DNA of 64,000 nucleotides, taken from IMG/VR virus record IMGVR_UViG_3300029305_001221, positions 1 to 64,000 of that record; one strand, given 5' to 3'. The notes under the pieces were generated by a model. It had not been told where the DNA came from, ran no database searches, and worked only from the letters and a program-made list of their open reading frames with translations. The DNA is from a virus (taxonomy: Duplodnaviria > Caudoviricetes). Position numbers and translations under genes: made by a program. This document shows positions 2,299-60,050 of this stretch, piece by piece; within the stretch, counting starts at the first letter, position 1; every line of letters starts with the position of its first letter.

Positions 2299-2454
2299 AT
2301 AATAGAAGAGGGGCGGCCGCGTTGGCTTCCCCTTCTTTTATTTTTCGATTGAATGAAATTGCGGCTAGTAAATATAACACCACGACCAGAGTATATAACA
2401 TGTTCGTTTAAAATACAACTCCTATTATGGACAAATAGCAAAGGAGTGAGTGAT

Positions 2455-2670
2455 ATGGCAAAAGTATATGACTTTCCATTAAAGAAACTTCCAGAGGAGA
2501 TTGACGTACGCTTGGACGAAATCGCAAAGGATTATGTCATGGCATTATATGATGTAATGGATGATCTATGTGATGAGCTAGAGCCTGCGAATGATGAATA
2601 TGAGGAGGTTTTTATGGTAGTACTGATGACTCTTGTAGAAAAACTTGACAAAGCTATTGAAGGATTTTGA
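2455..2670 (+). CDS. Small acidic hypothetical protein (cassette)
   Basis: AAGGAG RBS before ATG 2455; upstream motif and downstream terminator. Confidence 0.7.
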   Translation: MAKVYDFPLKKLPEEIDVRLDEIAKDYVMALYDVMDDLCDELEPANDEYEEVFMVVLMTLVEKLDKAIEGF

Positions 2671-2773
2671 GGAGGGGTTGTAATAACCTCTTCTTTTATT
2701 TTTTTGTCCGAACATAGTGAAGACAATTGACCGCGATAATTACTTTTCCCTTTATAGAAAGGAGACGAGAAGT

Positions 2774-2989
2774 ATGATTACTAAGAAGGTTTATGTCACT
2801 GTTCTTAATCACGAAAAGTATGAGAAGGTTGTACAGGAACTAAATAAGCTTGGCGTTACTATACTTGAAAAAAGTTATAATGTAGCTTGTGATCGGTACG
2901 ATATTCTTACTGAGATGAATGTTGAACAGTGTTGCACGATGCTTACTTTTGTAAACAAACTCGGCGGCATTCTATGGAAAGGGGAGTAA
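2774..2989 (+). CDS. Small hypothetical protein (cassette)
   Basis: AAAGGAG RBS before ATG 2774; own motif and terminator. Confidence 0.65.
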   Translation: MITKKVYVTVLNHEKYEKVVQELNKLGVTILEKSYNVACDRYDILTEMNVEQCCTMLTFVNKLGGILWKGE

Positions 2990-3034
2990 CATCCCCTATT
3001 CTTTTTGTTTCGCTCCATTTACATACTCTATTAT

Positions 3035-3162
3035 GGAGAGGAAGAGTTCTGCCTACTTAGCGGTAGGAGTAAGAATTGTGGTCGTGGCCAGAAATGGTCG
3101 AGTTCTGCCTACTTAGCAGTAGGAGTAAGAATTGTGGCGGCTTTCTCTTTTGTTTTTTTTTT
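3035..3162 (+). ncRNA. Putative structured small RNA with two near-identical 38-nt hairpin arms
   Basis: Begins at the motif at 3010. Repeats at 3044-3081 and 3100-3137 differ at one base. Central GGCCA-GAAA-TGGTC hairpin. 5' AGAGGAAG pairs with 3' CTTTCTCT, followed by a U-tract. No RBS or credible ORF. Confidence 0.65.
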
Positions 3163-3252
3163 GCTAGAACAATGGAGAGCTTGTATATTATATCAATATA
3201 GTTCGCATATAAAGCATGTTATATTATGAGAAAACTAAAGGAGGACGACGAT

Positions 3253-3417
3253 ATGTCAAAAGAAGACATTATCAAAGCTATCGAGTTGATCGACGAACAA
3301 TTACAGAAAAATCACGAGGTTGGTGCTGTATATATTCCGACGACACGATTGCTTATGGATGTTCGAAAAATGTATGTTGACATGTTAAAGTACAAATACG
3401 GGGTTTTCTATACGTAA
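3253..3417 (+). CDS. Small hypothetical protein (cassette)
   Basis: AAGGAGG RBS; motif at 3203; terminator at 3425-3458. Confidence 0.65.
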   Translation: MSKEDIIKAIELIDEQLQKNHEVGAVYIPTTRLLMDVRKMYVDMLKYKYGVFYT

Positions 3418-3458
3418 GTGTAAAAGGCTCTGTCAAAACGACAGGGTCTCTTTTTTTT

Positions 3459-3530
3459 GTTAGAGTAACGACTTACAACATCCATAGCCAATCCTATATC
3501 CCCAATGATGTTATAACTCGTGACCCTAAC
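3459..3530. other. Candidate attP of the serine integrase
   Basis: 24-bp imperfect inverted arms (20/24 match) at 3459-3482 and 3507-3530 around a 24-bp centre, just past the integrase 3' end and its terminator. Confidence 0.5.
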
Positions 3531-3560
3531 AAAGAAACCCTTGATATACAAGGGCTCTCT
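3531..3560 (-). terminator. Intrinsic terminator of the integrase gene
   Basis: CCCTTG-tatat-CAAGGG hairpin followed by TTTCTTTG on the minus strand. Confidence 0.6.
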
Positions 3561-3567
3561 AAGTGTG

Positions 3568-5421
3568 CTATAGTTTTAAATCAATATGCAATTCAAGATC
3601 GTCCTCATCCTCTTTACGCCAGTTCAGACGTTTTGTTTTAGAATAGGTAATTTTTGCTATTATCGATTTCAAACTTTCATTCTTCTGTGGTATACTCATG
3701 TTGTCGTATTCATTTAAACATTCTTCAAGATTCGGTACTGCTTTCTTATATTTGATAAGGGTGCTATTATCGTCATCGTTTTCGAATTCTTCGAGCTGCG
3801 TCATCAGTTCGTTGAGTTCGGATTCGATATCGCCTTTTATCTCCACATAATCTTCATGCGGTATTGCATGCTCTTCCTGATTCTGTTTTCGTATTAGATT
3901 TTTACGTTCTTTCTTCAAACTTTCTATTTTATTTTTAATCTTGACGATACTCTTTTGTTTATTAGTTTGTTCCTTTACTATTTCTTTTTCATAGTTATTA
4001 ATGTAATATTTAAAATTTGCTAGTTGAACTTTTAAATCATCCAATATAGCTCGTTCAATTCTTTGCAAACAAGCTCCTACCATATTGCAATGCTGATTAC
4101 TACACACAAACATGTCGTTCAACGGCGGTGGATCTACATACGTCATTATCTGTTCGTCGAATTCGTCACTGTCGATTTCCAGAAAGAATTTTAGCTCATA
4201 CCATTTCTCAGTAAATAAGTCGCTATAATGGTTATGGTCTGGACGAGTATCAAACCATGTTACCACGTTATGTTTCTTGATATTTAGGAACTCCGCTATT
4301 TGTTGATAACTAACGGCCTTCTTTTCCTTATGCTCTCGCAGAAAAGCGTTCAATTTTGCTTTATTTATCTCATATTTACGGCGTTTCTTACGTTCTTTGT
4401 CGCGTCTAGTATTTTTAACCCTAACCAGGGAGTGATTGCATTTCTTACAGAATACTAGACCTGCTATAGGGTTTTGTAACTCTCGATTAAGTCCTACTCT
4501 AGACGACGGATTCCCTTTTATTTTTTCTTGGGCTAGATCCCACGTCTCTTTCGATACAATCGGATCATGTCGTCCTCTAACGAGCATATAATCATCGGTA
4601 CTAACCCGTATCTTTGTTATTTCTTCGTTTATCCATCTTTTTACGGTCGGTCGTTTACCCCATGCAGTCGAACCATAATATATTTCATTCTTCATAACAT
4701 GTCGCACCATCGCATCGTCCCAGAGTTTGTTTTTGCGAGGCTTCATGTGATGCTTATTTAAATAACTCGCTACCTCGATCGCTGTTAAATCCTCATCTAC
4801 AAACAATTTGTATATGGTTTCGACAATGGGAGCCTCGACTTTATTTTTAACAAGCATAAAACCTCGATCTAAAGCTTTTCTCTGATAACCAAACGGAGGC
4901 GTAGAGCCAACATATTTGCCTTCTCGAATTGATAAGTTCTTACCACGATCCATTATTTCTTTATGATATTCGAGATACTGGTTACCCTGCACTAATTGAG
5001 CTTCAAATAGCTGTCTATCAAACTTATTACTTAAATCATATGTCTTAGTTACCGTTACGACGAGCGTGTCAGTATATCTAAGAATGTCGACAACTCGTCC
5101 GCAGTCGGTCATTCCACCACGAGAAATACGCTGCGGTTCAACTACTAATAACCCGCGTATCGGTTCCTTTTCTAAACGCTGAAATACTTTCTTAATTTCA
5201 ATACGCTCGTCTAAGGTCTCTCCAGAAACTACCTCTCGATAGATATTTGCTTCGGGTATCTTTTGCCCGAATGTCTGCTCGGCGTAATCCTGTAATATTT
5301 TCTCATGTCGTGCTAAAACCTCTTCAACAGTTTCATTTCTCTCAGCCCTTGATTTTCTTAAATAAATTATTATTTGATCTACGCATATCTGCGAAAGTTC
5401 GTGTTGCGTGATTATATGCAT
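3568..5421 (-). CDS. Large serine recombinase (integrase) with an XRE-like HTH inserted in the zinc-ribbon domain
   Basis: YLRKSR catalytic motif; EVVSG, RISRG, recombinase domain (PPFGY), zinc ribbon CKKC...CSNQHC and coiled coil. Start at 5421 follows an AAGGGG RBS. Confidence 0.92.
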   Translation of the reverse strand: MHIITQHELSQICVDQIIIYLRKSRAERNETVEEVLARHEKILQDYAEQTFGQKIPEANIYREVVSGETLDERIEIKKVFQRLEKEPIRGLLVVEPQRISRGGMTDCGRVVDILRYTDTLVVTVTKTYDLSNKFDRQLFEAQLVQGNQYLEYHKEIMDRGKNLSIREGKYVGSTPPFGYQRKALDRGFMLVKNKVEAPIVETIYKLFVDEDLTAIEVASYLNKHHMKPRKNKLWDDAMVRHVMKNEIYYGSTAWGKRPTVKRWINEEITKIRVSTDDYMLVRGRHDPIVSKETWDLAQEKIKGNPSSRVGLNRELQNPIAGLVFCKKCNHSLVRVKNTRRDKERKKRRKYEINKAKLNAFLREHKEKKAVSYQQIAEFLNIKKHNVVTWFDTRPDHNHYSDLFTEKWYELKFFLEIDSDEFDEQIMTYVDPPPLNDMFVCSNQHCNMVGACLQRIERAILDDLKVQLANFKYYINNYEKEIVKEQTNKQKSIVKIKNKIESLKKERKNLIRKQNQEEHAIPHEDYVEIKGDIESELNELMTQLEEFENDDDNSTLIKYKKAVPNLEECLNEYDNMSIPQKNESLKSIIAKITYSKTKRLNWRKEDEDDLELHIDLKL

Positions 5422-5460
5422 GGAAAAATATACCCCTTTTCTGTTTGTCAATTTTACATT

Positions 5461-5477
5461 ATGCTTCAAATAGTGAA
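5461..5477. promoter_or_regulatory. Putative operator ATGCTTCAAATAGTGAA (identical copy at 6513-6529)
   Basis: 17-bp exact repeat with a TTCA-N5-TGAA dyad, upstream of the integrase and of gene 6553. Confidence 0.5.
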
Positions 5478-5527
5478 ATTCTCATATTTTACTGAATACA
5501 TACATATCTTTTATAGAGGTGATCGAC

Positions 5528-5680
5528 ATGAAAATTACTTATTCACGAAGAACCCCTACAAAGGAAGTTCTTCAACATGTTTATGACGTAATGAACAAAA
5601 ATATTAAGAATCCCAAATGTTTCTATACGTCAGAGCAGGTAAAAGAGCTAAAGAAAGATAAGAATAATATCTGGCTATAA
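5528..5680 (+). CDS. 50-aa basic protein, divergent from the integrase (not in the ORF track)
   Basis: GAGGTG RBS; MKITYSRRTPTKEVLQHVYDVMNKNIKNPKCFYTSEQVKELKKDKNNIWL. Confidence 0.6.
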   Translation: MKITYSRRTPTKEVLQHVYDVMNKNIKNPKCFYTSEQVKELKKDKNNIWL

Positions 5681-6058
5681 ACGAGACTGTTCTTTAGCAT
5701 GTAAGTATAACTTCATAATACTCTCGTACAATTCTTGTTTCTCATCCATCGGAACATTGTCATTTTCAAAAATTATTTTAGCGCGTTCTAACAAATCAAC
5801 CGTTTCTATCTCATTCGATTCGAAACCCAATGTCTCAATAGAAACGCTAAAGAAATCGGCTAAAGCTTTGATCTGATGGATGTTGAAATTTCTTTTTCCG
5901 GTCTCCAGATTCGAGATTTGACCTCGAGATAAGGGTTTGCCGGAGATTTTATCGCCTAACACTTCCCCTAGTTCGTCTTGCGTAATCCCTCTTGATTTTC
6001 TCAACTGTTTGACACGCTCGCCTATTTCTCTAGTATTAATCGACTTTTGAATGCGCAT
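5675..6058 (-). CDS. XRE-family repressor (CI-like)
   Basis: N-terminal HTH IGERVKQLRKSRGITQDELG...ISNLETGKR; next to the integrase. Confidence 0.85.
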   Translation of the reverse strand: MRIQKSINTREIGERVKQLRKSRGITQDELGEVLGDKISGKPLSRGQISNLETGKRNFNIHQIKALADFFSVSIETLGFESNEIETVDLLERAKIIFENDNVPMDEKQELYESIMKLYLHAKEQSRL

Positions 6059-6285
6059 CTTACCACAACCTTTCTTTTATTTTTTTTGACATAAAAATAT
6101 TTTTAAGAAAAACATATCTTTTTTTGATGTTTTTCATTTTTATATTTTTACATAAAAATATTCAAATAGCAAACTTTTTGATTTTTAGTTATACAAAACA
6201 CATACATATTTCACAAATTAGTTTTAATATAGTAGTGTGAAAAACAAAACATATGTTCTAATGCATAAATAAGGAGTGGGGATAC

Positions 6286-6447
6286 TTGGAGGGCGTCGCA
6301 AAAGTAATCGATGAATTAGGTTTAATGATTCTTGCCAAAAACGTTGAACTCGAAACAAAGCAAGATGAGATTGATAGACTAAAAGAGAAGATAAACTTAA
6401 TGGAGAGCTATTTAGAAGTATACGAAGAATTCTATAGTAAACTTTAG
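6286..6447 (+). CDS. 53-aa coiled-coil protein (not in the ORF track)
   Basis: AAGGAG RBS, TTG start, MEGVAKVIDELGLMILAKNVELETKQDEIDRLKEK... Confidence 0.5.
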   Translation: MEGVAKVIDELGLMILAKNVELETKQDEIDRLKEKINLMESYLEVYEEFYSKL

Positions 6448-6552
6448 TCGATAGGATATCTGGTCATGCTGAACGGTTAAGGCAACATTGTTTGGCATTT
6501 TTTTTAAAGCGAATGCTTCAAATAGTGAATTTAGAAAGGGGTATGTTAACAA

Positions 6553-6957
6553 ATGGCTACGGTAATACGTCCAGAGATATCGGAGAAGAACAAATACTAC
6601 ATAAGTAAACATAGACATTACGAGCTGAAGCATTTCTGCCTTCAATATCCGGAATGGAGACGCTCATATACAGAAGCGGATGGATTTGGACGAATTGCTT
6701 CTGAATCCGATACGAGATATTCTGATAGGACTGCTAAACACGGAACATTAAGAGCTAAGTACATAGATAGAATAAGACTTATAGAAGAAGCTGCGAGATT
6801 GGCTGATAATGATCTCTCGTCATATATTTTAAAAGGAGTAACCGAGGGTTATTCGTATACATATTTAAAAACTACAATGGGTATGCCGTGCGGTAGAGAC
6901 ATGTATTATGATCGATACAGACGATTCTTCTGGCTGCTTAGTCAATCGCGAGATTAA
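6553..6957 (+). CDS. Putative phage transcriptional regulator (ArpU/RinA-like)
   Basis: Size and the C-terminal YSYTYL...CGRDMYYDRYRRFFWLL helix pattern recall phage activators; adjacent to the immunity region. Confidence 0.45.
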   Translation: MATVIRPEISEKNKYYISKHRHYELKHFCLQYPEWRRSYTEADGFGRIASESDTRYSDRTAKHGTLRAKYIDRIRLIEEAARLADNDLSSYILKGVTEGYSYTYLKTTMGMPCGRDMYYDRYRRFFWLLSQSRD

Positions 6958-6988
6958 CCGTCCCTATTATAGAAAGGGAGTGTTAGAT

Positions 6989-7198
6989 ATGAAATGGAAA
7001 AGCATATTGTCGCATGGATTAGTATTAGTTACCGGTTATGGAATCGGGAAGATCGTTGGAGGTTTGAAAGTCTGCAAATTTATGGCAGATGAATTCGAAA
7101 AGGAATTTCCTGGTTTTAAGAAAGGAGTAACTAAGGCTGCTAGCGACAAAGTTATCGATCGCATGTTTAATGAAACCGAGGAACGCGAAGGGGTGTAA
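6989..7198 (+). CDS. Small membrane protein (cassette)
   Basis: N-terminal hydrophobic GLVLVTGYGIG; own motif and terminator. Confidence 0.7.
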   Translation: MKWKSILSHGLVLVTGYGIGKIVGGLKVCKFMADEFEKEFPGFKKGVTKAASDKVIDRMFNETEEREGV

Positions 7199-7274
7199 CA
7201 ACCCCTTTTTGTTTTGTTCGCGTATTTTTCAGCGTCCTTTATGAAGTATAAATTATTTTAGGAGGTATAAAACT

Positions 7275-7559
7275 ATGACACCTATTTATATGTACGGATT
7301 GGGCGGATACGAGGATCATTTCAGGATTATCGTACACTGGCGCATCGATGAGGATATGGACAATTACGAGGACGTATTTGATTTGTGCAAAAGCAAAGCT
7401 TCATATATGAGATATAAACATCCATCTGTGAAGGAAGTTTATGCAATATATCAGAAACCCGGATTGGCGCATGACTATCAGCGCACGGTTAAGAAGAATG
7501 ACATAGAGCATTGTGTCGCCTTCCGAGACATGCTTAGAGCAAAGGGAATGGATTTCTAA
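7275..7559 (+). CDS. Hypothetical protein (cassette)
   Basis: GGAGG RBS; motif at 7218; terminator at about 7583-7612. Confidence 0.7.
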   Translation: MTPIYMYGLGGYEDHFRIIVHWRIDEDMDNYEDVFDLCKSKASYMRYKHPSVKEVYAIYQKPGLAHDYQRTVKKNDIEHCVAFRDMLRAKGMDF

Positions 7560-7696
7560 AAGCAAGTTATACTCGAAAAGAGAAGAGCTCTTAAAACGGG
7601 CTCTTTTCGTTTTTCGGCAGAACTAAGAGACGGCAGTCGCGTATAATACAGCCCCCTTTATGAAGTAAATACATATATTTTGAGAGGAGAATAACT

Positions 7697-7963
7697 ATGA
7701 AAAAGTTATGTGTACTTATGGGGTTGGCATTAGTGATTTGCGGATGGATTGGTCTGGCAATGCTTAACAATAATGAGGTTGTATCCGATGAGGATATCGC
7801 AATGAGTTATATCATCAACGAATACGGAGAGGATGACTACGAACTAGTCATGTACGAAGAGGAGGATGATGAATATATCAAGTTTGCGGTTTTCAAGGAC
7901 GGGAAACCTTTCAGAACTTGTAGCATTTTAAGAGATTATTATCTAGTTCACGCGGATAGCTGA
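7697..7963 (+). CDS. Small exported/membrane-anchored protein (cassette)
   Basis: N-terminal signal or TM segment, acidic body. Confidence 0.7.
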   Translation: MKKLCVLMGLALVICGWIGLAMLNNNEVVSDEDIAMSYIINEYGEDDYELVMYEEEDDEYIKFAVFKDGKPFRTCSILRDYYLVHADS

Positions 7964-8058
7964 GGCTATCCCTTTTTATTTCTGAACATTAGTGAGGGGA
8001 TCGGTCGCGTAAATTGCACGTTACTTTATAGAAATAATGAAAAAGGAGATGTACTATT

Positions 8059-8244
8059 ATGGCACCTTGTGAAATGGGATATAGAGACAATTTTCAGGAT
8101 AAGAAGATCAAACACAAGAATAAGACTCAATTCAACTTGGGTAGGATTCTTGAGACGATCGCAGACTACCTGTGGATGATCGCAATATTCCCAATCGCAT
8201 TCGTCGTCAGAGTATTCAGATGGACTTATCATTACGACGACTAA
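8059..8244 (+). CDS. Small membrane protein (cassette)
   Basis: C-terminal TM LWMIAIFPIAFVV. Confidence 0.65.
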   Translation: MAPCEMGYRDNFQDKKIKHKNKTQFNLGRILETIADYLWMIAIFPIAFVVRVFRWTYHYDD

Positions 8245-8348
8245 GAGGCTTCGGCCTCTTTTTTATTTCTAAAATATCTAAGAAAATCGTCGCATAAATT
8301 ACACGCTCCTTTATGGAAACAATTTACATTACAAAGGAGACTATACAT

Positions 8349-8552
8349 ATGAAGAAGTTTGAAAAGTATTTGAAGAAGTTTGTGCTGTATCTTTGCGAAA
8401 CATACAAGAATAAGCTTTGCGCTTTGGCATTGCTTATCTGCGGATGGATTCCGTTAAAGATTAGCGGCGATGGAACTGCTTTGATGATTATTGGCTTTTT
8501 CGCAATTGGATTGTTCTTTGCGAGAACGGATTGGTTCTTAAAGAAAAATTGA
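8349..8552 (+). CDS. Small two-TM protein (cassette)
   Basis: AAGGAG RBS, two hydrophobic segments. Confidence 0.65.
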   Translation: MKKFEKYLKKFVLYLCETYKNKLCALALLICGWIPLKISGDGTALMIIGFFAIGLFFARTDWFLKKN

Positions 8553-8659
8553 GGAGACTTCGGTCTCTTCTTTTATTTTTTAAATCTAGATTAGATCTCG
8601 CGTAAATTACACATCCCTTTATGGAGTAAACAAGCATATAATCGAAAGGGGAAATAATT

Positions 8660-8830
8660 ATGTTGAACTTTATTACTATTATCGCTGGAGTTATGATTGG
8701 AACGCTTTTGGCTGGCGTTGTGACATTCGTAGTAATGACATATACGCCGTTCTTTGGCTGGTACATGAAGAAAGTCGCGAAGATGAGTAAGGAGATCACT
8801 GAGGAACTCATGGAGGAGTATGATCTGTAA
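8660..8830 (+). CDS. 56-aa membrane protein (not in the ORF track)
   Basis: MLNFITIIAGVMIGTLLAGVVTFVVM...; motif at 8598, terminator at 8842-8870. Confidence 0.65.
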   Translation: MLNFITIIAGVMIGTLLAGVVTFVVMTYTPFFGWYMKKVAKMSKEITEELMEEYDL

Positions 8831-8876
8831 ACTCAGAACGAGAGTCTAAGAAATTCTTAGGCTCTTTTTCTTTTAT

Positions 8877-8918
8877 TTCTGAAGATATCTGAGGAAATTC
8901 TGAAGTTGTCTGAGGAAA
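8877..8918 (+). repeat. 21-bp tandem repeat TTCTGAAG(A/T)T(A/G)TCTGAGGAAA x2; related copy at 49510-49530
   Basis: Direct inspection; each occurrence directly follows a terminator U-tract. Confidence 0.7.
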
Positions 8919-9052
8919 TCTAGGATAGAACTTTTAAACCTAGCTTAATAATATTCCGCACACAGACGACCATTTCAGGTGTTAAATTGATATCGTTCCG
9001 GAAAAATTCCCCGGGTTAGAAATTTCGAAAAACAAAATGAAAGGAGATAAAT

Positions 9053-9271
9053 ATGGGGTATGTAATAGTCTTCATTCTCGCATTATTACTCGGCACATTC
9101 GTAGGTATATTACTGACGCATTTAAAATCGTCTGGAATTATAAGAGTAACTGGAGCCGATGAAGACGGTATGTATTTGGGCCTAGTTGTTAGCAAGAGTC
9201 CTGCTGATTTCATGCGTCACAAGTACGTAACGTTTAAAGTCGACAACTCTTATTTCAATTCGCACAAATAA
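9053..9271 (+). CDS. Small membrane protein
   Basis: N-terminal TM; AAAGGAG RBS. Confidence 0.7.
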   Translation: MGYVIVFILALLLGTFVGILLTHLKSSGIIRVTGADEDGMYLGLVVSKSPADFMRHKYVTFKVDNSYFNSHK

Positions 9272-9323
9272 CAAGTCCTATTACGGTAATATCAAATTAT
9301 ATTTTTGAAAGGAGAAATCTAAA

Positions 9324-9716
9324 ATGATTAACGAACCTAAAAGACTGCTACGGGAGGAATTCCGAAAAGAGGTCGAGGAGCTTAGCAAGATTTCCGTTGG
9401 AACTGAAGAATACAAGGTTGCAGTTGACGGGGTCGCTAAGATTGCGGATCGAATTATCGAGATCGAAAAACTCGAAGTCGATGTTCGTGACAAGGAGGTA
9501 AATCGAGAAGTCGATGCTGACTTGAAGCGCGAGCAGATGGCTGAGGAGAAGAAAGATCGAATTATTCGAAATGCGATCACGGTCCTGACTACTGCGGCTG
9601 GATTCGGATTGACCATCTGGGGTTACTTGACTGAACTCAAGTACGACGAGAAGGGAGCTATGCCTAGAACGCTGTTAGGTAAGGAATTTGCGAAAGGATT
9701 GTTCCGCAGAAAGTAA
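9324..9716 (+). CDS. Coiled-coil protein with a C-terminal TM (cassette)
   Basis: Motif at 9260; RBS; terminator at about 9736-9767. Confidence 0.7.
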   Translation: MINEPKRLLREEFRKEVEELSKISVGTEEYKVAVDGVAKIADRIIEIEKLEVDVRDKEVNREVDADLKREQMAEEKKDRIIRNAITVLTTAAGFGLTIWGYLTELKYDEKGAMPRTLLGKEFAKGLFRRK

Positions 9717-9857
9717 GCTGATTTATCATTCTACCAAGGGGCTATGGAAACATAGTCTCTTGTTTTTGTCCGAACCTGATGAAGGTAACAGACGCGGAAA
9801 TTGCACGTCCTATTATGGAATCAATTATTTAATTAAATGGTAAAGGAGGACGATTAA

Positions 9858-9935
9858 TTGGTAATCTTAGGATTTGCACTAGTAATCGTTGGTTGCATCA
9901 TTATTATGAAAGGTTCAAGCAACGGGGGGTCGTAA
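9858..9935 (+). CDS. 25-aa TM micropeptide
   Basis: AAAGGAGG RBS, TTG start, MVILGFALVIVGCIIIMKGSSNGGS; own motif (9792) and terminator. Confidence 0.55.
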   Translation: MVILGFALVIVGCIIIMKGSSNGGS

Positions 9936-10058
9936 TGACCCCTTTTTGTTTTCTATAAGAATTCAGTAATAATGTCCTAATCTTTTCTTTTCGGCGCGAA
10001 ATTTACAGCCACCTTTATGAAAAGGAAGAGGTAAATTGAACGGAGAAAGGATTATATT

Positions 10059-10157
10059 ATGACTACTAGTATGATGTTAATGTTTATGATTGCTATTAGC
10101 ATAGGATTATCTATCGATGAGAAATTGCATGAAAACGACGGAGAGTCCGAGCAGTAA
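10059..10157 (+). CDS. 32-aa micropeptide with a hydrophobic N-half
   Basis: AAAGGA RBS, MTTSMMLMFMIAISIGLSIDEKLHENDGESEQ; own motif (9994) and terminator. Confidence 0.5.
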   Translation: MTTSMMLMFMIAISIGLSIDEKLHENDGESEQ

Positions 10158-10197
10158 TGTTCGACTCTTCATTTTTATTTTCTCCGGGAGGTGACTT

Positions 10198-10557
10198 ATG
10201 AGGTATCATTACGAAAAACCTGCCATTTTTTCATCGATGTACGGAACTACATATAAATGTGAGCATCCCGTGTATGACAAATGCACACTTTTCGAAATAG
10301 CTGGGAGAGGGCTCGCTATAATTCAACAGAGATATGACCCGAATAGCAAGCGGACCTGGTGGAGTGAGATAGATCCTTGGCTTACCGATGAGATATATCT
10401 GCATTCTAAATTTAAACAATTGTTCGATGAACGAGCTGACGAGCCTATGGATGGTTTATACCCAACTGCTAGCATACGACAGGTCATGTGGGCGCTTAAA
10501 ATGAAACCTATTCCAAAAGAGCGATGGGAAACATGTTTCGATAGACGTCTTATCTAG
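10198..10557 (+). CDS. Conserved phage hypothetical protein
   Basis: GGGAGGTG RBS, 119 aa. Confidence 0.7.
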   Translation: MRYHYEKPAIFSSMYGTTYKCEHPVYDKCTLFEIAGRGLAIIQQRYDPNSKRTWWSEIDPWLTDEIYLHSKFKQLFDERADEPMDGLYPTASIRQVMWALKMKPIPKERWETCFDRRLI

Positions 10558-10623
10558 TCGCGTAATTTGCATCCTCCTTTATGAAACCGAAACGGTTAAT
10601 ACATTATGAAAAGAGGAACGATT

Positions 10624-10857: not shown

Positions 10858-10959
10858 GAGGGGCTTCGGCCTCTTTTATTTTTCTGACATTGTGCAGCAA
10901 TAGCAGTCGCAAATTTTACAACTTACTTTATGAAAGAATATTTTAAGGAGGTTTAAATT

Positions 10960-11085: not shown

Positions 11086-11190
11086 TATCTTGGCGAAACG
11101 GAGTCTAAGAAATTCTTAGGCTCTTGTTTCTTGAACAAATGGATGGACGCGAAATTATCACAGGCTATTATGAAAAGGAGGTAAATAATT

Positions 11191-51725: not shown

Positions 51726-52562
51726 ATGCAATACATAAACTGTAAGGAATACGCTCAGGAGATCTTGGATAAGGTTAGAGATACTCCTGCTGAGAAAAAG
51801 AAAAAGTTGCTCATTTTGACTGTTGGTAACGATCCTGCTTCGGCTTCTTATGTGAAGGGAAAGATCAAGGATTGCGAGTATTGTGGGATTCCGTATGAGC
51901 ATGTGAAGATTGATGACACTTGTTCTAAGATTGGCGACATTTATGTACGCGAAGCTGATATTCTACTCAAACATCGCATTGCGGATGGAAACCGTGATCC
52001 CGAGGTCGGTGGTATTATCGTTCAGTTACCTTTGCCTGGTGATTTGGATGAGGATCGATTTACGCATCTGGTGTTTCCTGAAAAAGACGTGGATGGGTTC
52101 ACATATGCCAGTCATTTCAAGCCTTGCACGCCTGAGGGAATCGTATATCTGCTGAAAAAAGAGCTTGGCGAGAATTTAGCAGGTAAAGATATTCTGCTCA
52201 TCGGTAAAGGTAAGCTTGTCGGTAAGCCTCTGATCGAGATGTTGCTAGACGAGGGCGCGACGTTGACAATTGCTCATAGTAAGACGAAAGATTTGGGTAA
52301 ACTGTTGTGGCAGATGCGAGATGCTATTGTCACTGCTGTCGGGATCCCGGAGCTTGTTCATCTTGATACTACAAAGGCCAGAGTCGTTATCGATGCTGGT
52401 ATTGCTCGAGGTAAGGATGGGAAGCTGCATGGAGATTGCTATGGGTTCGATGGAGCTGAGTATAGCAGACCTACTCGTGTGACTCCTGTTCCTGGTGGAG
52501 TGGGTCTTATGACTCGGGCCATGCTTATGAGTCATATGGTTAGAGATTTGGAGGAAAAGTAA
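51726..52562 (+). CDS. folD: Bifunctional 5,10-methylene-THF dehydrogenase/cyclohydrolase
   Basis: SASYVKGK, GGIIVQLPLP, PEKDVDG, PCTPEGI, VIDAGI, TPVPGGVGLMTRAML. Confidence 0.93.
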   Translation: MQYINCKEYAQEILDKVRDTPAEKKKKLLILTVGNDPASASYVKGKIKDCEYCGIPYEHVKIDDTCSKIGDIYVREADILLKHRIADGNRDPEVGGIIVQLPLPGDLDEDRFTHLVFPEKDVDGFTYASHFKPCTPEGIVYLLKKELGENLAGKDILLIGKGKLVGKPLIEMLLDEGATLTIAHSKTKDLGKLLWQMRDAIVTAVGIPELVHLDTTKARVVIDAGIARGKDGKLHGDCYGFDGAEYSRPTRVTPVPGGVGLMTRAMLMSHMVRDLEEK

Positions 52563-54246: not shown

Positions 54247-54617
54247 TGGCCACTTTTAAAAACAGGATTTGGCCAATTGGACAAATATTTGGCCAATTTT
54301 GCAACTTTTTAAGAAAAACGTTGTTCGAGGTCACTTAAATATTCTTAATCGGGCTCGAAAAATTGACCAATTTTGCTCGTTTTTCGGCATTTTTTGGCCA
54401 TTTTTTGCATTAGGATTTGGCCATTGGCCACTTTTGAAAATGGATTTGGCCACGGGAAAACCCAGTAATTGCAAGGGTTTGAGGGCTCTCTGGCCAAATG
54501 GTCAATTATTTTTCTTATTTAGTATAGAGTAAAATTGTAAAATATTTAATTTTAAAATTAAAAAAAGTGAAATTTCAATTCTATAATAAATAAGGGTAAA
54601 ATGCGGAAAAGTGGCCA
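54247..54617. repeat. TGGCCA iteron-like cluster with an AT-rich tract; candidate replication origin
   Basis: Nine TGGCCA palindromes at 54247, 54270, 54290, 54395, 54418, 54425, 54447, 54491 and 54612; AT-rich stretch at about 54505-54600; intergenic. Confidence 0.6.
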
Positions 54618-54651
54618 CAAGTTGATTTTATGCGTAACAAGGAGAACTTCT

Positions 54652-55095
54652 ATGGAATACGTGAATAACGCTGCTCGACTAGTCTATGACGATTTCGTCA
54701 ACAATTATCCAAATCTGGCTAGAGAGATTGTCGACTGGTATCAGAGCGGTCAACTAGAGATTGTAATTAAACTTCGTAATGATGAACGTCTCGCCTATGA
54801 CTTCACAAATCATACCTATAGATATTTGAAAAAGTTTAAAGAGAGCGAGTACGGCCTACCCGACTTCTCGGAAGAAGAATGGTCTAGAGGTTTCGCTAGT
54901 AAACTTAGAAAAAAAATGCGAGTCAAGGGCATGAGTGGAAAAGAGCTTGCAGCTCGATCTGGAATTAGCGAGTCTCGCATTAGTCAATACTTAAATGGTA
55001 AGACAGTGCCGAGTGCAGTGGCCGTCGCTAGACTTGCCCTTGCGCTGGAATGCTCCGTGTCGGAATTGTCGTGGTTCGCTGAGTTGAGTTTGTGA
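54652..55095 (+). CDS. Protein with a C-terminal XRE HTH
   Basis: MSGKELAARSGISESRISQYLNGKTVPS; AAGGAG RBS before ATG 54652. Confidence 0.75.
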   Translation: MEYVNNAARLVYDDFVNNYPNLAREIVDWYQSGQLEIVIKLRNDERLAYDFTNHTYRYLKKFKESEYGLPDFSEEEWSRGFASKLRKKMRVKGMSGKELAARSGISESRISQYLNGKTVPSAVAVARLALALECSVSELSWFAELSL

Positions 55096-55388: not shown

Positions 55389-55852
55389 TCGCGAATCTAA
55401 CAATCAGCTTTATAGAAAGGAGTGAACTTTATGTTCGGAAACACGATTTTCAAAAACACACAAGGTTACTTCACCAAAGCAGCTAGCGATCAGCTCGATG
55501 TTACTCTCGAAGCTGCCAAGAAACTTGTGAAACTTACTTCTATGGATTGGTATCTTGTAGAAGGAACACTGTATAACAAGGTTCGTGGTGCTTGCTTCGC
55601 AGAGGGCATCGTATGCGGTCTGGCCTGCGCTGGTGCAGCCTGTGTGGTAAACAAAGCTGTCAAGAAGCATAAAGAAGAAACCTAATTTAAAGACTAGAGG
55701 TTTGCGTAAAACACGCAGCCTCTTTTCTTTTTCTGGGAGAGCGCAGCGATAGCAGCCTCTTTTATTTTTTTGTCCGAAAGTATTGAAGACAATCCACCTC
55801 CACATAATTTTACTCAAAAATAGGGACGCGAAAAAAACAGGTCCTTTTATGG
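55389..55852 (+). promoter_or_regulatory. Motif copies at 55389 (cassette gene 55422-55685) and 55826 (head of the RNAP operon)
   Basis: TCGCGAATCTAACAATCAGCTTTATAG; ACGCGAAAAAAACAGGTCCTTTTATGG. Confidence 0.8.
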
Positions 55853-55959
55853 AGAGAAGAGAAAATAAACGGCGAAATTTTACAAACACCATTATTTTTT
55901 CATTCTCTCTGAGACTGTAACGATATTGAATAAAAACTAACAAGAAAGGAGGCTCATTC

Positions 55960-56259
55960 GTGGCAAGAAGTTCAAAATTAGAAAGCGGATTTCAAGACAG
56001 ACTTATTTCGGAACTTAAAACGCTTTTCCCAGGCTGCATGGTCTTCAAGATGGACCAGATTCAAGGCATCCCTGATCTACTCATTCTATATGGAAAGAAA
56101 TGGGCCTCCCTTGAAAATAAGAAATCGCTCAAAGCTAAGCGTCAACCAAATCAAGAGTACTATGTGGAGCTTATGAACAAGATGTCGTTCTCGAGATTCA
56201 TCTGTCCAGAGAACAAGGAGGAAGTGTTAAGTGAACTTCGCAAAGTTTTTATGGGCTAA
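55960..56259 (+). CDS. VRR-NUC / Holliday-junction-resolvase-like PD-(D/E)xK nuclease
   Basis: ESGFQ...GIPDLLIL...LENKK. Confidence 0.75.
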   Translation: MARSSKLESGFQDRLISELKTLFPGCMVFKMDQIQGIPDLLILYGKKWASLENKKSLKAKRQPNQEYYVELMNKMSFSRFICPENKEEVLSELRKVFMG

Positions 56260-56752
56260 GGACTTCGAGTATAACGTCGACAAGTTCGGTAAAGATCCGA
56301 AACATAATGTCTTATACATCGTGGGTCTTAGCGGTTCTGGAAAAACATACACCGCTGAAAGACTTGCGGATGCTGACACGGACGTTGTGAATCTTGACGA
56401 CTATAACAATGATTATCTATCAGACGAAGCTTACTATTATACAGTCGATAGAATCATTTATGATAGTACACAATTTGCGAGTAACCTGTATCCGAAGCGA
56501 AAACTAATTGTCGAAGGGATACAGCTGATCGACATGCATCCCAATTTCTTCAAGGACTACTGTCTTATTGTAAAGCGCACTAACATCCTTACTGCTTTTT
56601 ACAGAAAGACCGAACGAGATAGAGGTGAAGAGAGTCTCGTAAAAACTCTTTGGAGAAATCGGCACTATTTGAAATGGTACATAACCTGTAGTAGGAAATT
56701 AAACACTCTTGTGAAAAGTTTGAGGGGAGACGCTTATGGGATTCGTATTTAA
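56231..56752 (+). CDS. P-loop NTPase/kinase
   Basis: IVGLSGSGKT Walker A; LIVEG. Confidence 0.7.
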   Translation: MNFAKFLWAKDFEYNVDKFGKDPKHNVLYIVGLSGSGKTYTAERLADADTDVVNLDDYNNDYLSDEAYYYTVDRIIYDSTQFASNLYPKRKLIVEGIQLIDMHPNFFKDYCLIVKRTNILTAFYRKTERDRGEESLVKTLWRNRHYLKWYITCSRKLNTLVKSLRGDAYGIRI

Positions 56753-57299
56753 TGAACATCACAAATTATCAGGTCTGCATGCGCCTTTCAGTCCTAGTCA
56801 GCCTAGCTGGTTGAACTACGATGATGAGAAGGTTCTAGATGTATACCGAAATAAGAAAGCCGCTGAGATGGGCACCAGACTTCATGCCTGGGCAAAGGAG
56901 ACCATCGATCTCGGCATCAAACAGCCTCGTTCCAAGAAAACTCTTTGCGCATATGTAAATGATGCAATTGGTTTCGGTATGGACACAGAGGTTGTTCTAT
57001 TTTATTCTGAAAGATTCTTTGGCACTGCTGATGCTATCTGCTTTAGAGATGGCGTTCTCAGAATTCATGATCTTAAAACTGGAAGCACTAAAGTCAAGAT
57101 TGAACAGTTGGAAGTCTATGCTGCCCTTTTCTGTCTTGAGTATCAGATCAAACCTACTAAGATCGAATTCGAGTTAAGAATCTATCAGAATGACGAAGTG
57201 CTATACGCAAATCCGACTCCTGAAAAGATTCAGGAAACTATGGATACGATTGTCCATCTTGACAAATTATTACAAAAAGCTGAGTACGAGGGGGTATAA
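56736..57299 (+). CDS. Cas4/RecB-like PD-(D/E)xK exonuclease
   Basis: MGTRLH, FGTADAI, IHDLKTG, QLEVYA. Confidence 0.75.
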   Translation: MGFVFNEHHKLSGLHAPFSPSQPSWLNYDDEKVLDVYRNKKAAEMGTRLHAWAKETIDLGIKQPRSKKTLCAYVNDAIGFGMDTEVVLFYSERFFGTADAICFRDGVLRIHDLKTGSTKVKIEQLEVYAALFCLEYQIKPTKIEFELRIYQNDEVLYANPTPEKIQETMDTIVHLDKLLQKAEYEGV

Positions 57300-57302
57300 A
57301 CC

Positions 57303-60050
57303 ATGAATTCCGTTGTGGAAGAAATGAGAGCCATACTCGAAGGCGACGAAGATGCGCTGTTACACTATGGCGTCAAGAGACGTTCTGGCAGATACCCCTG
57401 GGGCTCGGGGGATACGCCTTTCCAGCGTAGCGGAGATCTATTGAGTCGAGTTGATGAACTCAAAGATCAGGGCTTGTCTGAGAAAGAAATTGCTGACAGC
57501 ATTGGTCTGTCTACCACTGATTTGAGAATGCAGGTTCGAGTTGCTAATCATGAGAGAAAGCAGCTTGAATACGACAGAATCAAGTCTATTATGGACGACG
57601 GTATTACTAGTCCTACTGAGATTGGTAGAATTATGGGTAAATCTGAATCTACCATTCGTTCTATGATTAAGGAAAACACCGTTGCCAATCGTAACAGAGC
57701 TCGTGCTACTGCCGAGACTCTTAAGGCCGAGCTTGAGACGAAGGGAATCCTGGACGTTGGTGCTAATGTCGAATATGACTTGGGCTGTTCTAAGGGAACT
57801 CTGAAAGAAGCTCTGTTTATTCTGGAAACTGAAGGCTATAAGCACTTTGGTGTTGGTATGCCTCAGGTTACTAACAAGAAGCAGCAGACTAACCTGGAAT
57901 TGATTGCTAAATCCGATAAGGATATTAGTGAACTTCAGAGAGACGTTTACAATGACTATAGTCTTGTTAAGTCTGTCGGTGAATACCATTCCAAAGATGG
58001 TGGTAAAACCTATGCAAAGCTTGAGTATCCTGCTAGTTTGGACTCTAATCGAGTAGGTATTCGTTATGCCGAAGAAGGCGGTAAGAGTAAAGATGGCGTC
58101 ATGGAGATTCGTCGTGGTTGCGCTGATCTGGATCTCGGTAACTCTCATTATGCTCAGGTTCGAATCCTTGTTGATGGAACTCACTATCTCAAGGGCATGG
58201 CTATGTATGGTGATGACAAGGACTTTCCTCCTGGCATCGACCTGATGTTCAATACTAACAAGTCTGTTGGTACCGATAAGATGAAGGTCCTTAAGAAGAT
58301 TAAGGAAGATGACCCTGACAATCCGTTTGGTGCGAACATCAAAGCCAACGGTCAGAGTAAATACATAGACAAAGACGGTGTTGAAAAGCTTTCTCCTATT
58401 AATAAATTAAAAGAAGAAGGCGAATGGGACACTGCATCTTCTAAGAATCTGTCGTCTCAGTTCCTTTCTAAGCAGCCTATGCAGCTTATTAGAAAGCAGC
58501 TTGATCTTACTTATGCTGACGCAGCTGCTGAATACGATGAGATCTGTTCTCTGAACAACCCGACCATCAAGAAGAAACTCTTGCTTGAATTCGCTGATAA
58601 CTGTGACGGTTCTGCCGTCCATCTTAAGGCTGCAGCTCTGCCTAGACAGAAGACTCAGGTTATCCTGCCTGTCGATGCATTAAGAGACAACGAGATCTAC
58701 GCTCCTAACTTTAGACATGGCGAAGAAGTATTCCTGGTTCGTTATCCTCATGGTGGTACTTTCGAAATCCCTCGTCTGAAGGTTAACAACAATAATAAGT
58801 CTGCTAAGAATGCCTTGGGTAACACTACTGATGCAGTTGGTATTAACTCCAAGGTTGCAGAGAAGCTGTCTGGTGCGGACTTCGATGGTGATACTGTCAT
58901 CGTCATCCCTAGTAACAACAAGGTTAAGATCTCGTCCAAGGATACGCTGAAGGATCTTAAGGACTTCGATGCTAAGGTCCAGTACTCCACTGAAGGTAAG
59001 ACTGGTATCCGTCTGATGAAGGAGTCTGAGAAGCAGAAGCAGATGGGGATTGTCTCTAACCTTATTACTGACATGACCCTGCAGGGGGCTAAGGAATCGG
59101 AGATTGCTAGAGCGGTTAAGCACAGCATGGTTGTTATCGATGCTGTTAAGCATAAGCTGGACTTCAAGCAGTCTGAAAAAGACAACGGTATTGCCGAGCT
59201 TAAACAGCGGTACCAGAAGCACATCAATGAGGATGGTACTGAGAAGTATGGTGGCGCATCCACTCTGCTCTCTCGCCGTAAACAGACGGTAGAAGTACCT
59301 GAGACTAGAGGCTCCGGTAGGATAGACCCCGAGACTGGTAAGGTTATCTACAAGACTACTGGTCGTACCTACATCGATAAGGATGGTAAGGTTAAGGAGG
59401 CTACTAAGAAGGAGAAGCTCCTCCTCATGGTGGATGATCTACACGACCTATCTACTGGTACCCCTCAGGAGGAGGCCTATGCTGACTATGGTAATAAGAT
59501 GAAGGCGTTAGCTAACCAGGCTCGTAAAGAGTATCTGGCAACCCCTCGTCTTAAGTACGATCCTAGTGCAAACGTTACTTATAAGGATGAGGTTAACTCT
59601 CTGCTGTCTAAGCTTAATACTGCAGCTAAGAACGCTCCTAGAGAACGACAGGCACAGGCTATTGCTAACTCTGTAGTCAAGGCCAAGACCAATGCTAATC
59701 CTGATATGGGTAAAGATGAGGTTAAGAAGCTTAGAGATCGTGAGCTTCATAAAGCTCGTGAATCTGTTGGCGCTGACAGTAAGGGCTCTAAGTTCACACT
59801 TACTGACAGAGAATGGGAAGCTATTCAGGCTGGCGCTATCAGTGACTCTAGACTGACCAGCATTCTTCGCTACACTGAAGACAGTGAGATCAGACAGCGC
59901 GCAACGCCTAGAACTGTTAGCACATTGTCTAGCGCTCAAGTCACTAGAATCAAAGCCCTTGCCGCGAATGGTCACACAAACCAAGAGATCGCTGACATCA
60001 TGGGCAAATCTACATCTACAATTTCTAAGTATTTGAAAGGAAGTGATTGA
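57303..60050 (+). CDS. Single-chain two-barrel (double-psi beta-barrel) DNA-dependent RNA polymerase with N- and C-terminal HTHs
   Basis: Catalytic GADFDGD, upstream RYPHGG, HSMVVID..KH; HTHs SEKEIADSIG, SPTEIGRIMG and TNQEIADIMGKSTSTISKYL. Confidence 0.8.
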   Translation: MNSVVEEMRAILEGDEDALLHYGVKRRSGRYPWGSGDTPFQRSGDLLSRVDELKDQGLSEKEIADSIGLSTTDLRMQVRVANHERKQLEYDRIKSIMDDGITSPTEIGRIMGKSESTIRSMIKENTVANRNRARATAETLKAELETKGILDVGANVEYDLGCSKGTLKEALFILETEGYKHFGVGMPQVTNKKQQTNLELIAKSDKDISELQRDVYNDYSLVKSVGEYHSKDGGKTYAKLEYPASLDSNRVGIRYAEEGGKSKDGVMEIRRGCADLDLGNSHYAQVRILVDGTHYLKGMAMYGDDKDFPPGIDLMFNTNKSVGTDKMKVLKKIKEDDPDNPFGANIKANGQSKYIDKDGVEKLSPINKLKEEGEWDTASSKNLSSQFLSKQPMQLIRKQLDLTYADAAAEYDEICSLNNPTIKKKLLLEFADNCDGSAVHLKAAALPRQKTQVILPVDALRDNEIYAPNFRHGEEVFLVRYPHGGTFEIPRLKVNNNNKSAKNALGNTTDAVGINSKVAEKLSGADFDGDTVIVIPSNNKVKISSKDTLKDLKDFDAKVQYSTEGKTGIRLMKESEKQKQMGIVSNLITDMTLQGAKESEIARAVKHSMVVIDAVKHKLDFKQSEKDNGIAELKQRYQKHINEDGTEKYGGASTLLSRRKQTVEVPETRGSGRIDPETGKVIYKTTGRTYIDKDGKVKEATKKEKLLLMVDDLHDLSTGTPQEEAYADYGNKMKALANQARKEYLATPRLKYDPSANVTYKDEVNSLLSKLNTAAKNAPRERQAQAIANSVVKAKTNANPDMGKDEVKKLRDRELHKARESVGADSKGSKFTLTDREWEAIQAGAISDSRLTSILRYTEDSEIRQRATPRTVSTLSSAQVTRIKALAANGHTNQEIADIMGKSTSTISKYLKGSD

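Follow-up and report, generated by a model that had tools for sequence, protein, structure and literature searches.

A candidate promoter class for a single-chain two-barrel RNA polymerase encoded by a temperate gut phage and its relatives

Promoters have been characterized for the two-barrel RNA polymerases (RNAPs) of phages AR9 and phiKZ. They have also been characterized for two single-chain enzymes, gp96 and gp64 of phage P23-45 (bioRxiv 10.1101/2022.12.01.518664), and YonO of the Bacillus prophage SPbeta transcribes phage late genes in a rifampicin-independent manner from a promoter sequence that is undefined (PMC5467207). A further family of YonO-like proteins, PHROG 4291, was named the "1706 family" in 2010 (PMC2919709), and in 2021 a putative polymerase flanked by helix-turn-helix (HTH) domains was described as the mark of an actinobacteriophage supercluster (clusters AM, AU, AW, BI, CC, DJ and EL) together with the Lactococcus 1706 / FP_oengus phages (bioRxiv 10.1101/842583). 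Published work on this family predicts the enzyme and names no promoter. A sequence-only reading of the DNA studied here knew of no characterized promoter for this RNAP group; this holds for the PHROG 4291 family and YonO, and does not hold for the P23-45 enzymes. The DNA is a 64,000-bp stretch (the window, bases 1–64000 of the 82,536-bp IMG/VR virus record IMGVR_UViG_3300029305_001221, a gut phage genome rated complete) that carries 28 copies of a 27-bp motif and, at 57303–60050, a gene for a 915-aa member of PHROG 4291. Sequence comparison leads us to propose, with a probability of roughly two in three, that the motif defines a promoter class belonging to a phage-encoded transcription system whose enzyme is the 915-aa two-barrel RNAP.

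The 27-base motif was found at all 28 of the start positions listed in the sequence-only reading, in register, without a single insertion or deletion and always on the + strand. A position weight matrix (PWM) built from the 28 copies and scored on both strands of the window assigned them 22.8–35.6 bits, while no other position exceeded 12.1 bits, and the other 18.5 kb of the virus record hold no copy. The degenerate pattern CGC-N8-CA-N5-YWTWRTRR matched 24 times on the + strand and not once on the − strand, versus 0.09 ± 0.29 matches in 100 dinucleotide shuffles. Positions C2, G3, C4 (T in copy 2404), C13, A14, T22, T23, A24, T25, R26 and R27 are invariant or nearly so. Conservation is confined to blocks at positions 2–5, 12–14 and 20–27, whose centres lie ~10 bp apart and which would therefore be presented on one face of the DNA helix. 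As had been proposed, the motif is absent from the serine integrase / XRE repressor module (3568–6058), with no copy in the interval 3230–6945 that spans it. The window has a G+C content of 42%. Both ends of the record fall within coding sequence, so the assembly is probably circularly permuted.

The surroundings of the motif would suit a promoter. In 26 of 28 cases a ribosome-binding site and the start codon of an open reading frame (ORF) of at least 25 aa follow 15–71 nt downstream; of the two remaining copies, 11411 precedes a tRNA-like gene and 55826 a structured leader. The Shine-Dalgarno sequence (SD) begins only 1–2 nt past the motif in 11 copies. Terminator-like hairpins are enriched between 1 and 20 kb (35 vs 14.1 ± 3.8), and more than a dozen of those on the + strand lie up to a few tens of nucleotides upstream of a copy. 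Copies 6946, 9260, 25981 and 49166 extend over the final codons of the preceding ORF, no terminator intervenes, and they are therefore candidates for internal promoters rather than cassette heads. The earlier description of each copy as lying after a terminator or gene end and before a ribosome-binding site or structured RNA is accurate downstream for all 28 copies and has to be amended upstream, where several copies sit inside the end of the preceding ORF.

The gene at 57303–60050 (+ strand) encodes a single-chain two-barrel RNAP homologue that matches phrog_4291 over its full length (protein residues 11–914 vs profile positions 4–908/909, E 0) and matches the Pfam RdRP family weakly (E 1.3e-4). 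In an alignment of 18 homologues (43–77% identity), the catalytic loop region encoded at 58740–58892 contains the invariant residues R480 and P482, within the sequence LVRYPH, and the invariant D526-F-D-G-D530, the metal-binding signature already recognized in the sequence-only reading. An R-x-P element likewise precedes the aspartate loop in other two-barrel polymerases, namely R446/P448 in Rpb1 and R962/P964 in QDE-1, and five of the eight residues listed as common to all two-barrel polymerases could be located here (PMC2919709). In two-barrel polymerases, a second, beta-like barrel contributes one Asp and two basic residues; a beta-rich segment between residues 264 and 331 of the protein has invariant residues that are possible counterparts (D264, D275, R287, K297, D304, D313, K320 and K331). 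HTH modules are predicted at both termini: an N-terminal helical region (residues 39–147, encoded at 57417–57743) gives a sigma70_r4-like match at residues 106–123 along with NarL and Sleeping Beauty-type HTH matches and is helical in the structural model, and the C-terminal HTH (residues 875–912, encoded at 59925–60038) matches Pfam HTH_38 (E 9e-11) and Sigma70_r4_2 (E 4e-7).

An AlphaFold model of the protein was of moderate quality (pLDDT 71, pTM 0.57). Foldseek comparison of this model with the PDB placed QDE-1 first (E 1.3e-5), together with plant RDR2, P74 gp62, P32 gp64 and P23-45 gp96, and next the Rpb1/beta-prime chains. The structure prediction thus ranks two-barrel polymerases at the top, at TM scores of only ~0.27. 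Searches of PDB sequences with the protein and its profile returned HTH-type matches and none to the catalytic core. Taken by its sequence features, the protein looks like a two-barrel polymerase with an HTH at both ends. Homologues were detected by tblastn in 250 phage records at 37–54% identity, under the genera Arthrobacter, Gordonia, Streptomyces, Lactococcus, Curtobacterium, Microbacterium, Rhodococcus and Faecalibacterium, and are labelled in databases mostly as "HTH DNA-binding protein" or "RNA-dependent RNA polymerase". The homologue at L024:10001-12748 contains a single in-frame stop, which may reflect a broken gene, a sequencing error or recoding.

The motif accompanies this gene into phages of distant hosts. 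A shared form consisting of C-G-C, 8 nt, CA, 5 nt, an AT box and two purines is present on the polymerase-coding strand of Faecalibacterium, Lactococcus, Arthrobacter, Streptomyces and Gordonia phages, all of which encode PHROG 4291. FP_oengus carries 15–16 copies (ACGCGAAAAAT-ACA-N5-CTTTATGG), Lactococcus phage 1706 about 6 (YCRCATGTTTTACA-N5-CTATAGTAG), Arthrobacter phage Mudcat 7 (TCGCGTAAAWTACA-N5-TATAATGA), Streptomyces phage Rima 12–13 and Gordonia phage Vardy at least 8, the last two sharing TCGCA-N6-TACA-N5-TATARTGA, then GACCCCTAC; the copies in all of them are on the coding strand. In five related genomes the motif lies upstream of small genes past the tail module, with one copy before the endonuclease/exonuclease/polymerase operon. 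Positions C2, C4, A12-C13-A14, T22, T25 and R26 are kept although G+C varies widely among the hosts and among the genomes (34–60%).

The association holds in both directions. At 44 IMG/VR loci anchored on the polymerase gene, a relaxed pattern gave 49 matches on the gene strand and none on the other. Conversely, the exact 26-nt pattern occurs in at least 114 viral stretches, versus 8 for a control pattern with one extra spacer base, and 30 of 41 motif-bearing records encode the polymerase, as do 13 of the 14 of these rated at least 90% complete. The fourteenth, G023, has nine motif copies and lacks the polymerase, terminase, portal, capsid and operon segment; it was considered as a ~90%-complete genome with the motif and without the polymerase, and this was rejected when synteny mapping showed a truncated contig. 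Records of the group carry 5–17 copies, always on the polymerase strand, and five unrelated control records carry none. The scan of related genomes suggested in the sequence-only reading therefore links motif and polymerase gene, and a motif that travels across bacterial phyla with one polymerase gene is most likely the promoter of that enzyme.

An alternative is a promoter read by another, unrecognized phage polymerase or sigma-like factor, with the two-barrel protein engaged in, for example, priming or RNA-templated synthesis. Most ORFs of the window are without a family assignment, the family is labelled RNA-dependent RNA polymerase in databases, and QDE-1, the best structural match, is credited with both DNA- and RNA-dependent activities (PMC9508822). 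A motif preserved from Lactococcus to Streptomyces phages nevertheless needs a conserved reader. About ten gene families are universal in the phage group, and all are structural or devoted to replication and nuclease functions except the HTH-polymerase and a small hypothetical protein (bioRxiv 10.1101/842583), which leaves few candidate readers and, for this alternative, no other one. Family scans of ~55 window ORFs turned up no sigma factor or other polymerase, the T7-like family included, and HTH domains fused at both ends point to double-stranded DNA targeting. We regard another reader as highly improbable.

The polymerase gene belongs to an operon headed by motif copy 28 (55826–55852). It begins with an endonuclease gene (55960–56259; phrog_93, E 1e-13), found at the matching position in FP_oengus, Mudcat, Rima and Vardy, and continues with a P-loop ATPase-like ORF (56231–56752; weak AAA matches only), a Cas4/RecB-type exonuclease gene (56736–57299; phrog_3953, E 2e-75; PDDEXK), the polymerase gene and a gene for a 90-aa acidic protein (60054–60326; phrog_4303), all on the + strand. 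The order endonuclease, Cas4 exonuclease, polymerase and small protein (55960–60326 in the window) matches that of FP_oengus, Mudcat, Rima, 1706 and Vardy. A motif copy heads the operon here and in 16 related loci, 905–1832 nt upstream of the polymerase gene, an arrangement that fits the positive autoregulation once proposed for copy 55826, by which the enzyme would transcribe its own gene. The 90-aa protein, a possible cofactor, gives tblastn matches in ~70 loci and is encoded directly 3' of the polymerase gene in the RNAP-anchored loci; it has been listed as a universal "conserved hypothetical" protein (bioRxiv 10.1101/842583). Complex prediction with polymerase residues 42–915 gave a median score of 0.07, a value that favours neither binding nor its absence. 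The small protein has the invariant residues T8, D10-N-P12, P15, W22, D26, Y31, L37 and R39 and no Pfam family, and its homologues also occur elsewhere in the phage group.

The geometry of the motif bears on which polymerase starts from it. The CGCG and ACA blocks lie 14 bp and 5 bp from the AT box, and no −35 hexamer was found 16–18 bp upstream of that box, so the earlier remark that TTGACA is missing and that CGCG sits only 14 bp away is borne out. Sites resembling sigma-70 promoters are nowhere in the window enriched over shuffles. Position 21, the equivalent of −11, is A in 11 of 28 copies and T in the other 17, as it is in nearly all FP_oengus copies, and T25 is conserved. A sigma-70 start 6–8 nt past the box would place the RNA 5' end within the SD of 11 copies and 4–6 nt into the tRNA-like genes of 10 phages. 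Because such a start cuts SDs and tRNA-like genes and 17 of 28 copies have no A at −11, the geometry, as far as it can be judged from the DNA alone, is not that of sigma-70, and the AT box does not fit as a −10 element in the window.

The tRNA-like genes also place the start from the other side. ARAGORN reports such a gene with an abnormal anticodon loop at 11437–11512 (+ strand; Rfam tRNA, 52 bits, 11438–11511), and its 5' end coincides with position 27/28 of copy 11411. Across 10 phages (the window and nine others), tRNA-like genes begin at motif positions 26–31 and would be truncated by later starts, which argues for a start at or before position ~28. The conserved purines at 26–27 are the natural candidates for the predicted start base. 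A tRNA-like gene abuts the motif in at least ten phages of the group, the loci being 11437–11512 in the window, L161, L162, L082, L085, L067, L079, L061, L125, L149 and L177:21550 of Vardy. For most of these genes ARAGORN fails to read the anticodon loop and gives a two-letter "anticodon", and the tRNA-like sequence of Vardy stands at the same place although this phage was published as tRNA-free.

The same geometry was weighed against the possibility that the host holoenzyme reads the AT box as its −10 element and a phage activator or sigma-appropriation factor binds CGC(G/A)/ACA, in the manner of T4 MotA/AsiA. The T4 MotA box sits near −30, and CGCG would also lie near −30 if the AT box were the −10. 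In such a system the 915-aa protein could act as the factor through its HTH domains, as could the 90-aa acidic protein, which is about the size of an anti-sigma or appropriator, and the two-barrel core would have another role. Arthrobacter, Gordonia and many gut relatives have a perfect TATAAT as the box, primary sigma factors are no less universal than the motif, and the authors of the Vardy study read the motif as a sigma-70 promoter (PMC9671010). Against this, the start required would lie within the SD of 11 copies and within the tRNA-like genes of 10 phages, 17 of 28 copies and nearly all FP_oengus copies are without the essential A at −11, and the invariant catalytic residues of the polymerase would be left without a role. 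A host enzyme redirected by a phage factor is, in our assessment, unlikely.

Structured RNAs behind the motif were also examined. Predicted RNAs after copies 3010, 11411, 26967 and 55826 pair from nt 1–2 past position 26, with folding z-scores of −0.2, −3.4, −1.3 and −2.1, respectively. Folds that begin at the final purines, as described in the sequence-only reading, are therefore found at all four sites and are of modest significance. The predicted 5' leader hairpin of the polymerase operon (55851–55910, + strand) begins at motif position 26 (z −2.1). Leader hairpins beginning at this position were seen at 9 of 15 polymerase-operon promoters vs 33% of random windows, and were set aside as too weak to serve as start-site evidence. 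Several relatives have a hairpin and U-tract directly after the polymerase-operon promoter, which suggests attenuation. At 3035–3165, a small RNA candidate with two near-identical hairpin arms, a central GAAA-capped hairpin and a U-run folds no better than shuffles (z −0.24). In Rima (L049) and Vardy (L177), the conserved GACCCCTAC follows the motif and its complement TAGGGGTC is often found shortly before the next motif, so that, on sequence, cassette transcripts would have complementary 5' and 3' ends.

An element that recurs at gene boundaries might not be a promoter at all; it could be an operator, a signal for processing or translation at the RNA level, or a mobile cassette junction kept by recombination. 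Positions 17–21 (TCCYT) are complementary to the following SD, and an 8-bp hairpin is possible in several copies. This anti-SD hairpin was dropped as a functional element because the pairing is not site-specific and shows no covariation: each copy pairs with its own partner at −5.35 kcal/mol, compared with −5.19 kcal/mol for permuted partners (p 0.37). By the same test the motif has no promoter hairpin of the N4 type, as a hairpin across the start is found only where the SD is adjacent. An operator role gains some weight from a Spo0A-type DNA-binding protein encoded at 43083–43583, the 0A box being TGNCGAA, which CGCGAA resembles. A Spo0A box was rejected as a general explanation since Actinobacteria are without Spo0A, yet actinophages keep the motif.

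A signal acting in RNA would have to be transcribed, and some RNA contigs do contain the motif. Seven RNA runs from pig gut and anaerobic digester share 5–6% of the sequence words of 6900–13500, and four were aligned. The metatranscriptome contigs derive from relatives at 90–95% identity, and most are 150–425 nt long with one cassette each. Most start 10–50 nt past the predicted start and stop at the terminator, and contigs of this kind cannot define RNA ends; that they hold single cassettes is at most a weak hint. Those at 7218, 8005, 8290 and 10558 contain the motif. Terminators abut many copies upstream and would mostly keep the motif itself out of transcripts; the conserved blocks are spaced at 10–10.5 bp, as for recognition of duplex DNA; and a promoter would account for the strict orientation and for the 15–71 nt that separate the motif from a start codon or the 5' end of an RNA. 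A role other than that of a promoter appears very unlikely to us.

The data presented above have led us to propose a model in which the HTH modules at the N and C termini of the 915-aa enzyme would contact the CGC(G/A) and ACA blocks along one face of the duplex. Melting would take place at the AT box, which reads YWTTAT here and TATAAT or TATAGT in relatives, and RNA would start at purines 26–27, directly after the box as in T7-type promoters and not 6–8 nt downstream. Each copy would drive a short unit (a small gene, a tRNA-like RNA or a small RNA), mostly ended by a terminator, or head a longer operon, and the structural and lysis genes are probably also transcribed from the last copy, 55826. 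In phage 1706 the homologue orf75 is annotated in GenBank as "structural protein". Going by this annotation, the enzyme may enter the cell as part of the virion and begin early transcription independently of the host polymerase; virion-packaged RNAPs that transcribe the earliest genes are those of N4, phiKZ, crAss-like phages and P23-45 (gp96). In a lysogen that lacks the enzyme, none of the 28 promoters would be active. The claim that the product of 57303–60050 reads the motif draws on its co-occurrence with the motif across phyla, the geometry of the site and the lack of another reader. That it does so unaided goes further: a self-sufficient, virion-carried polymerase that would find the promoter with its own sigma-4-like HTH, use no sigma or host subunit and start right after the AT box is a tentative proposal, and one we hold to be somewhat doubtful.

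Several observations weigh against assigning the motif to the two-barrel enzyme. The structural model is only moderate (pLDDT 71, pTM 0.57). Eleven of the 41 motif-bearing contigs have no polymerase gene, those examined being fragments, and co-occurrence within a single lineage does not tell the polymerase apart from other factors present throughout that lineage, for example the 90-aa protein. Actinophage copies have a perfect TATAAT as the AT box and an SD far enough downstream for a host sigma-70 start, in line with the interpretation of the Vardy authors (PMC9671010). Some RNA contigs from relatives span the 7218 motif and reach up to 15 nt upstream of it, which means read-through, DNA carry-over or another start. 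Finally, a convincing host-type promoter for the polymerase operon, from which the first polymerase molecules could be made after prophage induction, was looked for and not found.

The array itself is detected throughout by the PWM on the + strand. Copy 1 (2404–2430; 25.7 bits) is the CGT variant and precedes a 71-aa ORF. Copy 2 (2731–2757) has an SD 1 nt after it and a terminator (2669–2695) upstream, and copy 3 (3010–3036), behind a terminator at 2980–2997, precedes a ~130-nt structured RNA ending in a U-run; copy 4 is at 3203–3229. To the right of the repressor module, copy 5 (6946–6972) comes first, with an adjacent SD, and is followed by copies 6 (7218–7244; abutted by a terminator at 7187–7208), 7 (7637–7663; terminator 7580–7608), 8 (8005–8031; terminator 7954–7971), 9 (8290–8316; terminator 8243–8260) and 10 (8598–8624; terminator 8551–8570), the last with the top score of 35.6 bits. 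Copy 11 (9260–9286) has a downstream ORF. Terminators are also associated with copies 12 (9792–9818; 9735–9762), 13 (9994–10020; 9924–9944), 15 (10907–10933; 10854–10879) and 16 (11147–11173; 11100–11124), of which copy 16 has an adjacent SD; copy 14 lies at 10558–10584. Copy 17 (11411–11437) is fused to the tRNA-like gene, copy 18 (12324–12350) has an adjacent SD, and copy 19 (13371–13397) is the last before a gene run that includes a DUF5906 (primase/polymerase-type) gene at 17729–21820. An SD is adjacent to copies 20 (22586–22612), 21 (25981–26007; overlapping the end of a helicase ORF), 22 (26344–26370; terminator 26304–26325), 23 (26666–26692), 25 (45359–45385), 26 (49166–49192) and 27 (55389–55415). 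Copy 24 (26967–26993; terminator 26912–26941) is followed directly by a leader with a hairpin and U-run.

Past copy 28 there is no motif for ~29 kb, a span that takes in the polymerase operon, a non-coding element at 60335–60420, the structural genes and, across the wrap-around, the lysis region that extends to 2404. Phage lambda reads its late genes across joined genome ends. Linear relatives have the polymerase gene and then the small gene as their final two genes before the genome end, and the late genes of the phage described here may by analogy be read from the polymerase-operon promoter across joined ends. Neither a motif copy nor a clear host promoter was found before the late genes (60327–60483). 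The 60335–60420 element, immediately behind the small gene, consists of a G-run, TCT(T)C(G)AAAAATACA, a C-run and then a second GC-rich dyad, and is conserved at the DNA level with relatives whose polymerases are 45–46% identical (L023:6080-6180 and L025:9197-9297). It sits where the genomes of linear relatives end and so may be a cos/pac site or a terminator. The XRE-type repressor gene (5675–6058, − strand) contains a good rightward sigma-70-like site at 6009–6036 (+ strand; TTGACA, 16 nt, TAGTAT), and a second XRE-type HTH gene (54601–55095, + strand) just upstream of the polymerase operon has its own such site at 54558–54587. Both are possible entry points of the host polymerase for induction.

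Among the other genes of the window, the Spo0A C-terminal DNA-binding homologue at 43083–43583 (Pfam Spo0A_C, E 1.5e-24) points to a host among the spore-forming Firmicutes and, possibly, to interference with the control of sporulation. Three DUF6353 paralogues (11537–12322, 12593–13369 and 15031–16053; E 1e-66 to 6e-84) have their counterpart in FP_oengus, which also has three. Auxiliary genes at 50822–51376, 51726–52562, 43574–44503 and 44503–44910 encode, in that order, an isochorismatase-family protein, FolD (methylene-THF dehydrogenase/cyclohydrolase), a dNMP kinase and a Lar-like restriction-alleviation protein. Ordinary tRNA genes are present in the replication region at 22777–22853, 24004–24088 and 24588–24673 (Met-CAT, Leu-TAG and Leu-TAA).

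If the proposal is right, it would supply the promoter for a family present in 250 phage records and many metagenomic contigs, and the comparison yields a precise 27-bp site, a predicted start base and blocks that can be mutated in cultivable members, which include Lactococcus phage 1706 and the SEA-PHAGES Arthrobacter, Gordonia and Streptomyces phages. Two-barrel polymerases carry out all cellular transcription and need separate initiation factors; a minimal version in one chain, with DNA-binding modules fused to it and a promoter defined for it, would show the minimum required for promoter-specific initiation. Were the enzyme to work unaided, one polypeptide and one 27-bp element would make up a host-independent system that has hardly changed between the phages of Lactococcus and Clostridia and those of Streptomyces, and in which, for temperate members, absence of the enzyme alone would silence the lytic programme. 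The pair would then also offer a compact orthogonal expression system for Gram-positive bacteria of high and low G+C.

The window protein resembles described members of PHROG 4291 in its R-x-P, DxDGD and terminal HTHs (PMC2919709, bioRxiv 10.1101/842583), but most of these are from lytic phages of 44–62 kb, whereas the phage described here is temperate, has a genome of 82.5 kb and encodes a serine integrase as well as an XRE repressor. The 50-bp intergenic motif of Vardy (Gordonia cluster DJ) is of the same motif family, with at least 8 copies of TCGCA-N6-TACA-N5-TATAATGA on the coding strand of the small-gene region. The Vardy paper took it for a sigma-70 promoter with a −10 element, placed the start at least ~7 nt downstream and drew no link to the polymerase gene (PMC9671010); the homologue of that gene, Vardy gene 89, is annotated "hypothetical protein". 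In contrast to that reading, which the present proposal would revise, the window box is mostly YTTTAT and abuts the SD. Family and motif have thus each appeared in print, and no paper connecting them was found in the literature searched.

The P23-45 system has single-chain two-barrel polymerases with motif-defined promoters of their own, as proposed here; relatives without the enzyme lack the motif, and one enzyme is delivered with the virion, as may also be the case for the window protein. P23-45-type enzymes are among the Foldseek matches (8h2n, and the homologues 8f5m and 8f72). However, the P23-45 enzymes show no detectable sequence similarity to the window protein, their promoter sequences differ, and the P23-45 paper mentions no fused HTH domains, which the window protein has. 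The P23-45 promoters rest on transcription start site mapping and ChIP-seq, and the window motif on sequence comparison. YonO, a DNA-dependent RNAP of a temperate Firmicute phage (PMC5467207), has the single-chain two-barrel architecture that is predicted for the window protein. It belongs to another family within the YonO-like group (PMC2919709), has one mapped start in a single late operon as opposed to the dozens of sites here, and has no described HTH domains (PMC5467207, PMC2919709) where the window protein has one at both ends; a phmmer search of the window protein against the PDB set gave no YonO match. T7-type enzymes have an unrelated fold, a Pol I-like right hand as opposed to the double-psi beta-barrel predicted here, and no scanned window ORF matched their family. 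The promoters of T7 and SP6 nevertheless follow the same plan as the motif, each being a contiguous ~25-bp element in which specificity blocks lie upstream, an AT-rich segment directly precedes +1 and RNA begins with a purine, present in dozens of copies on one strand and serving terminator-bounded units, like the array in the window.

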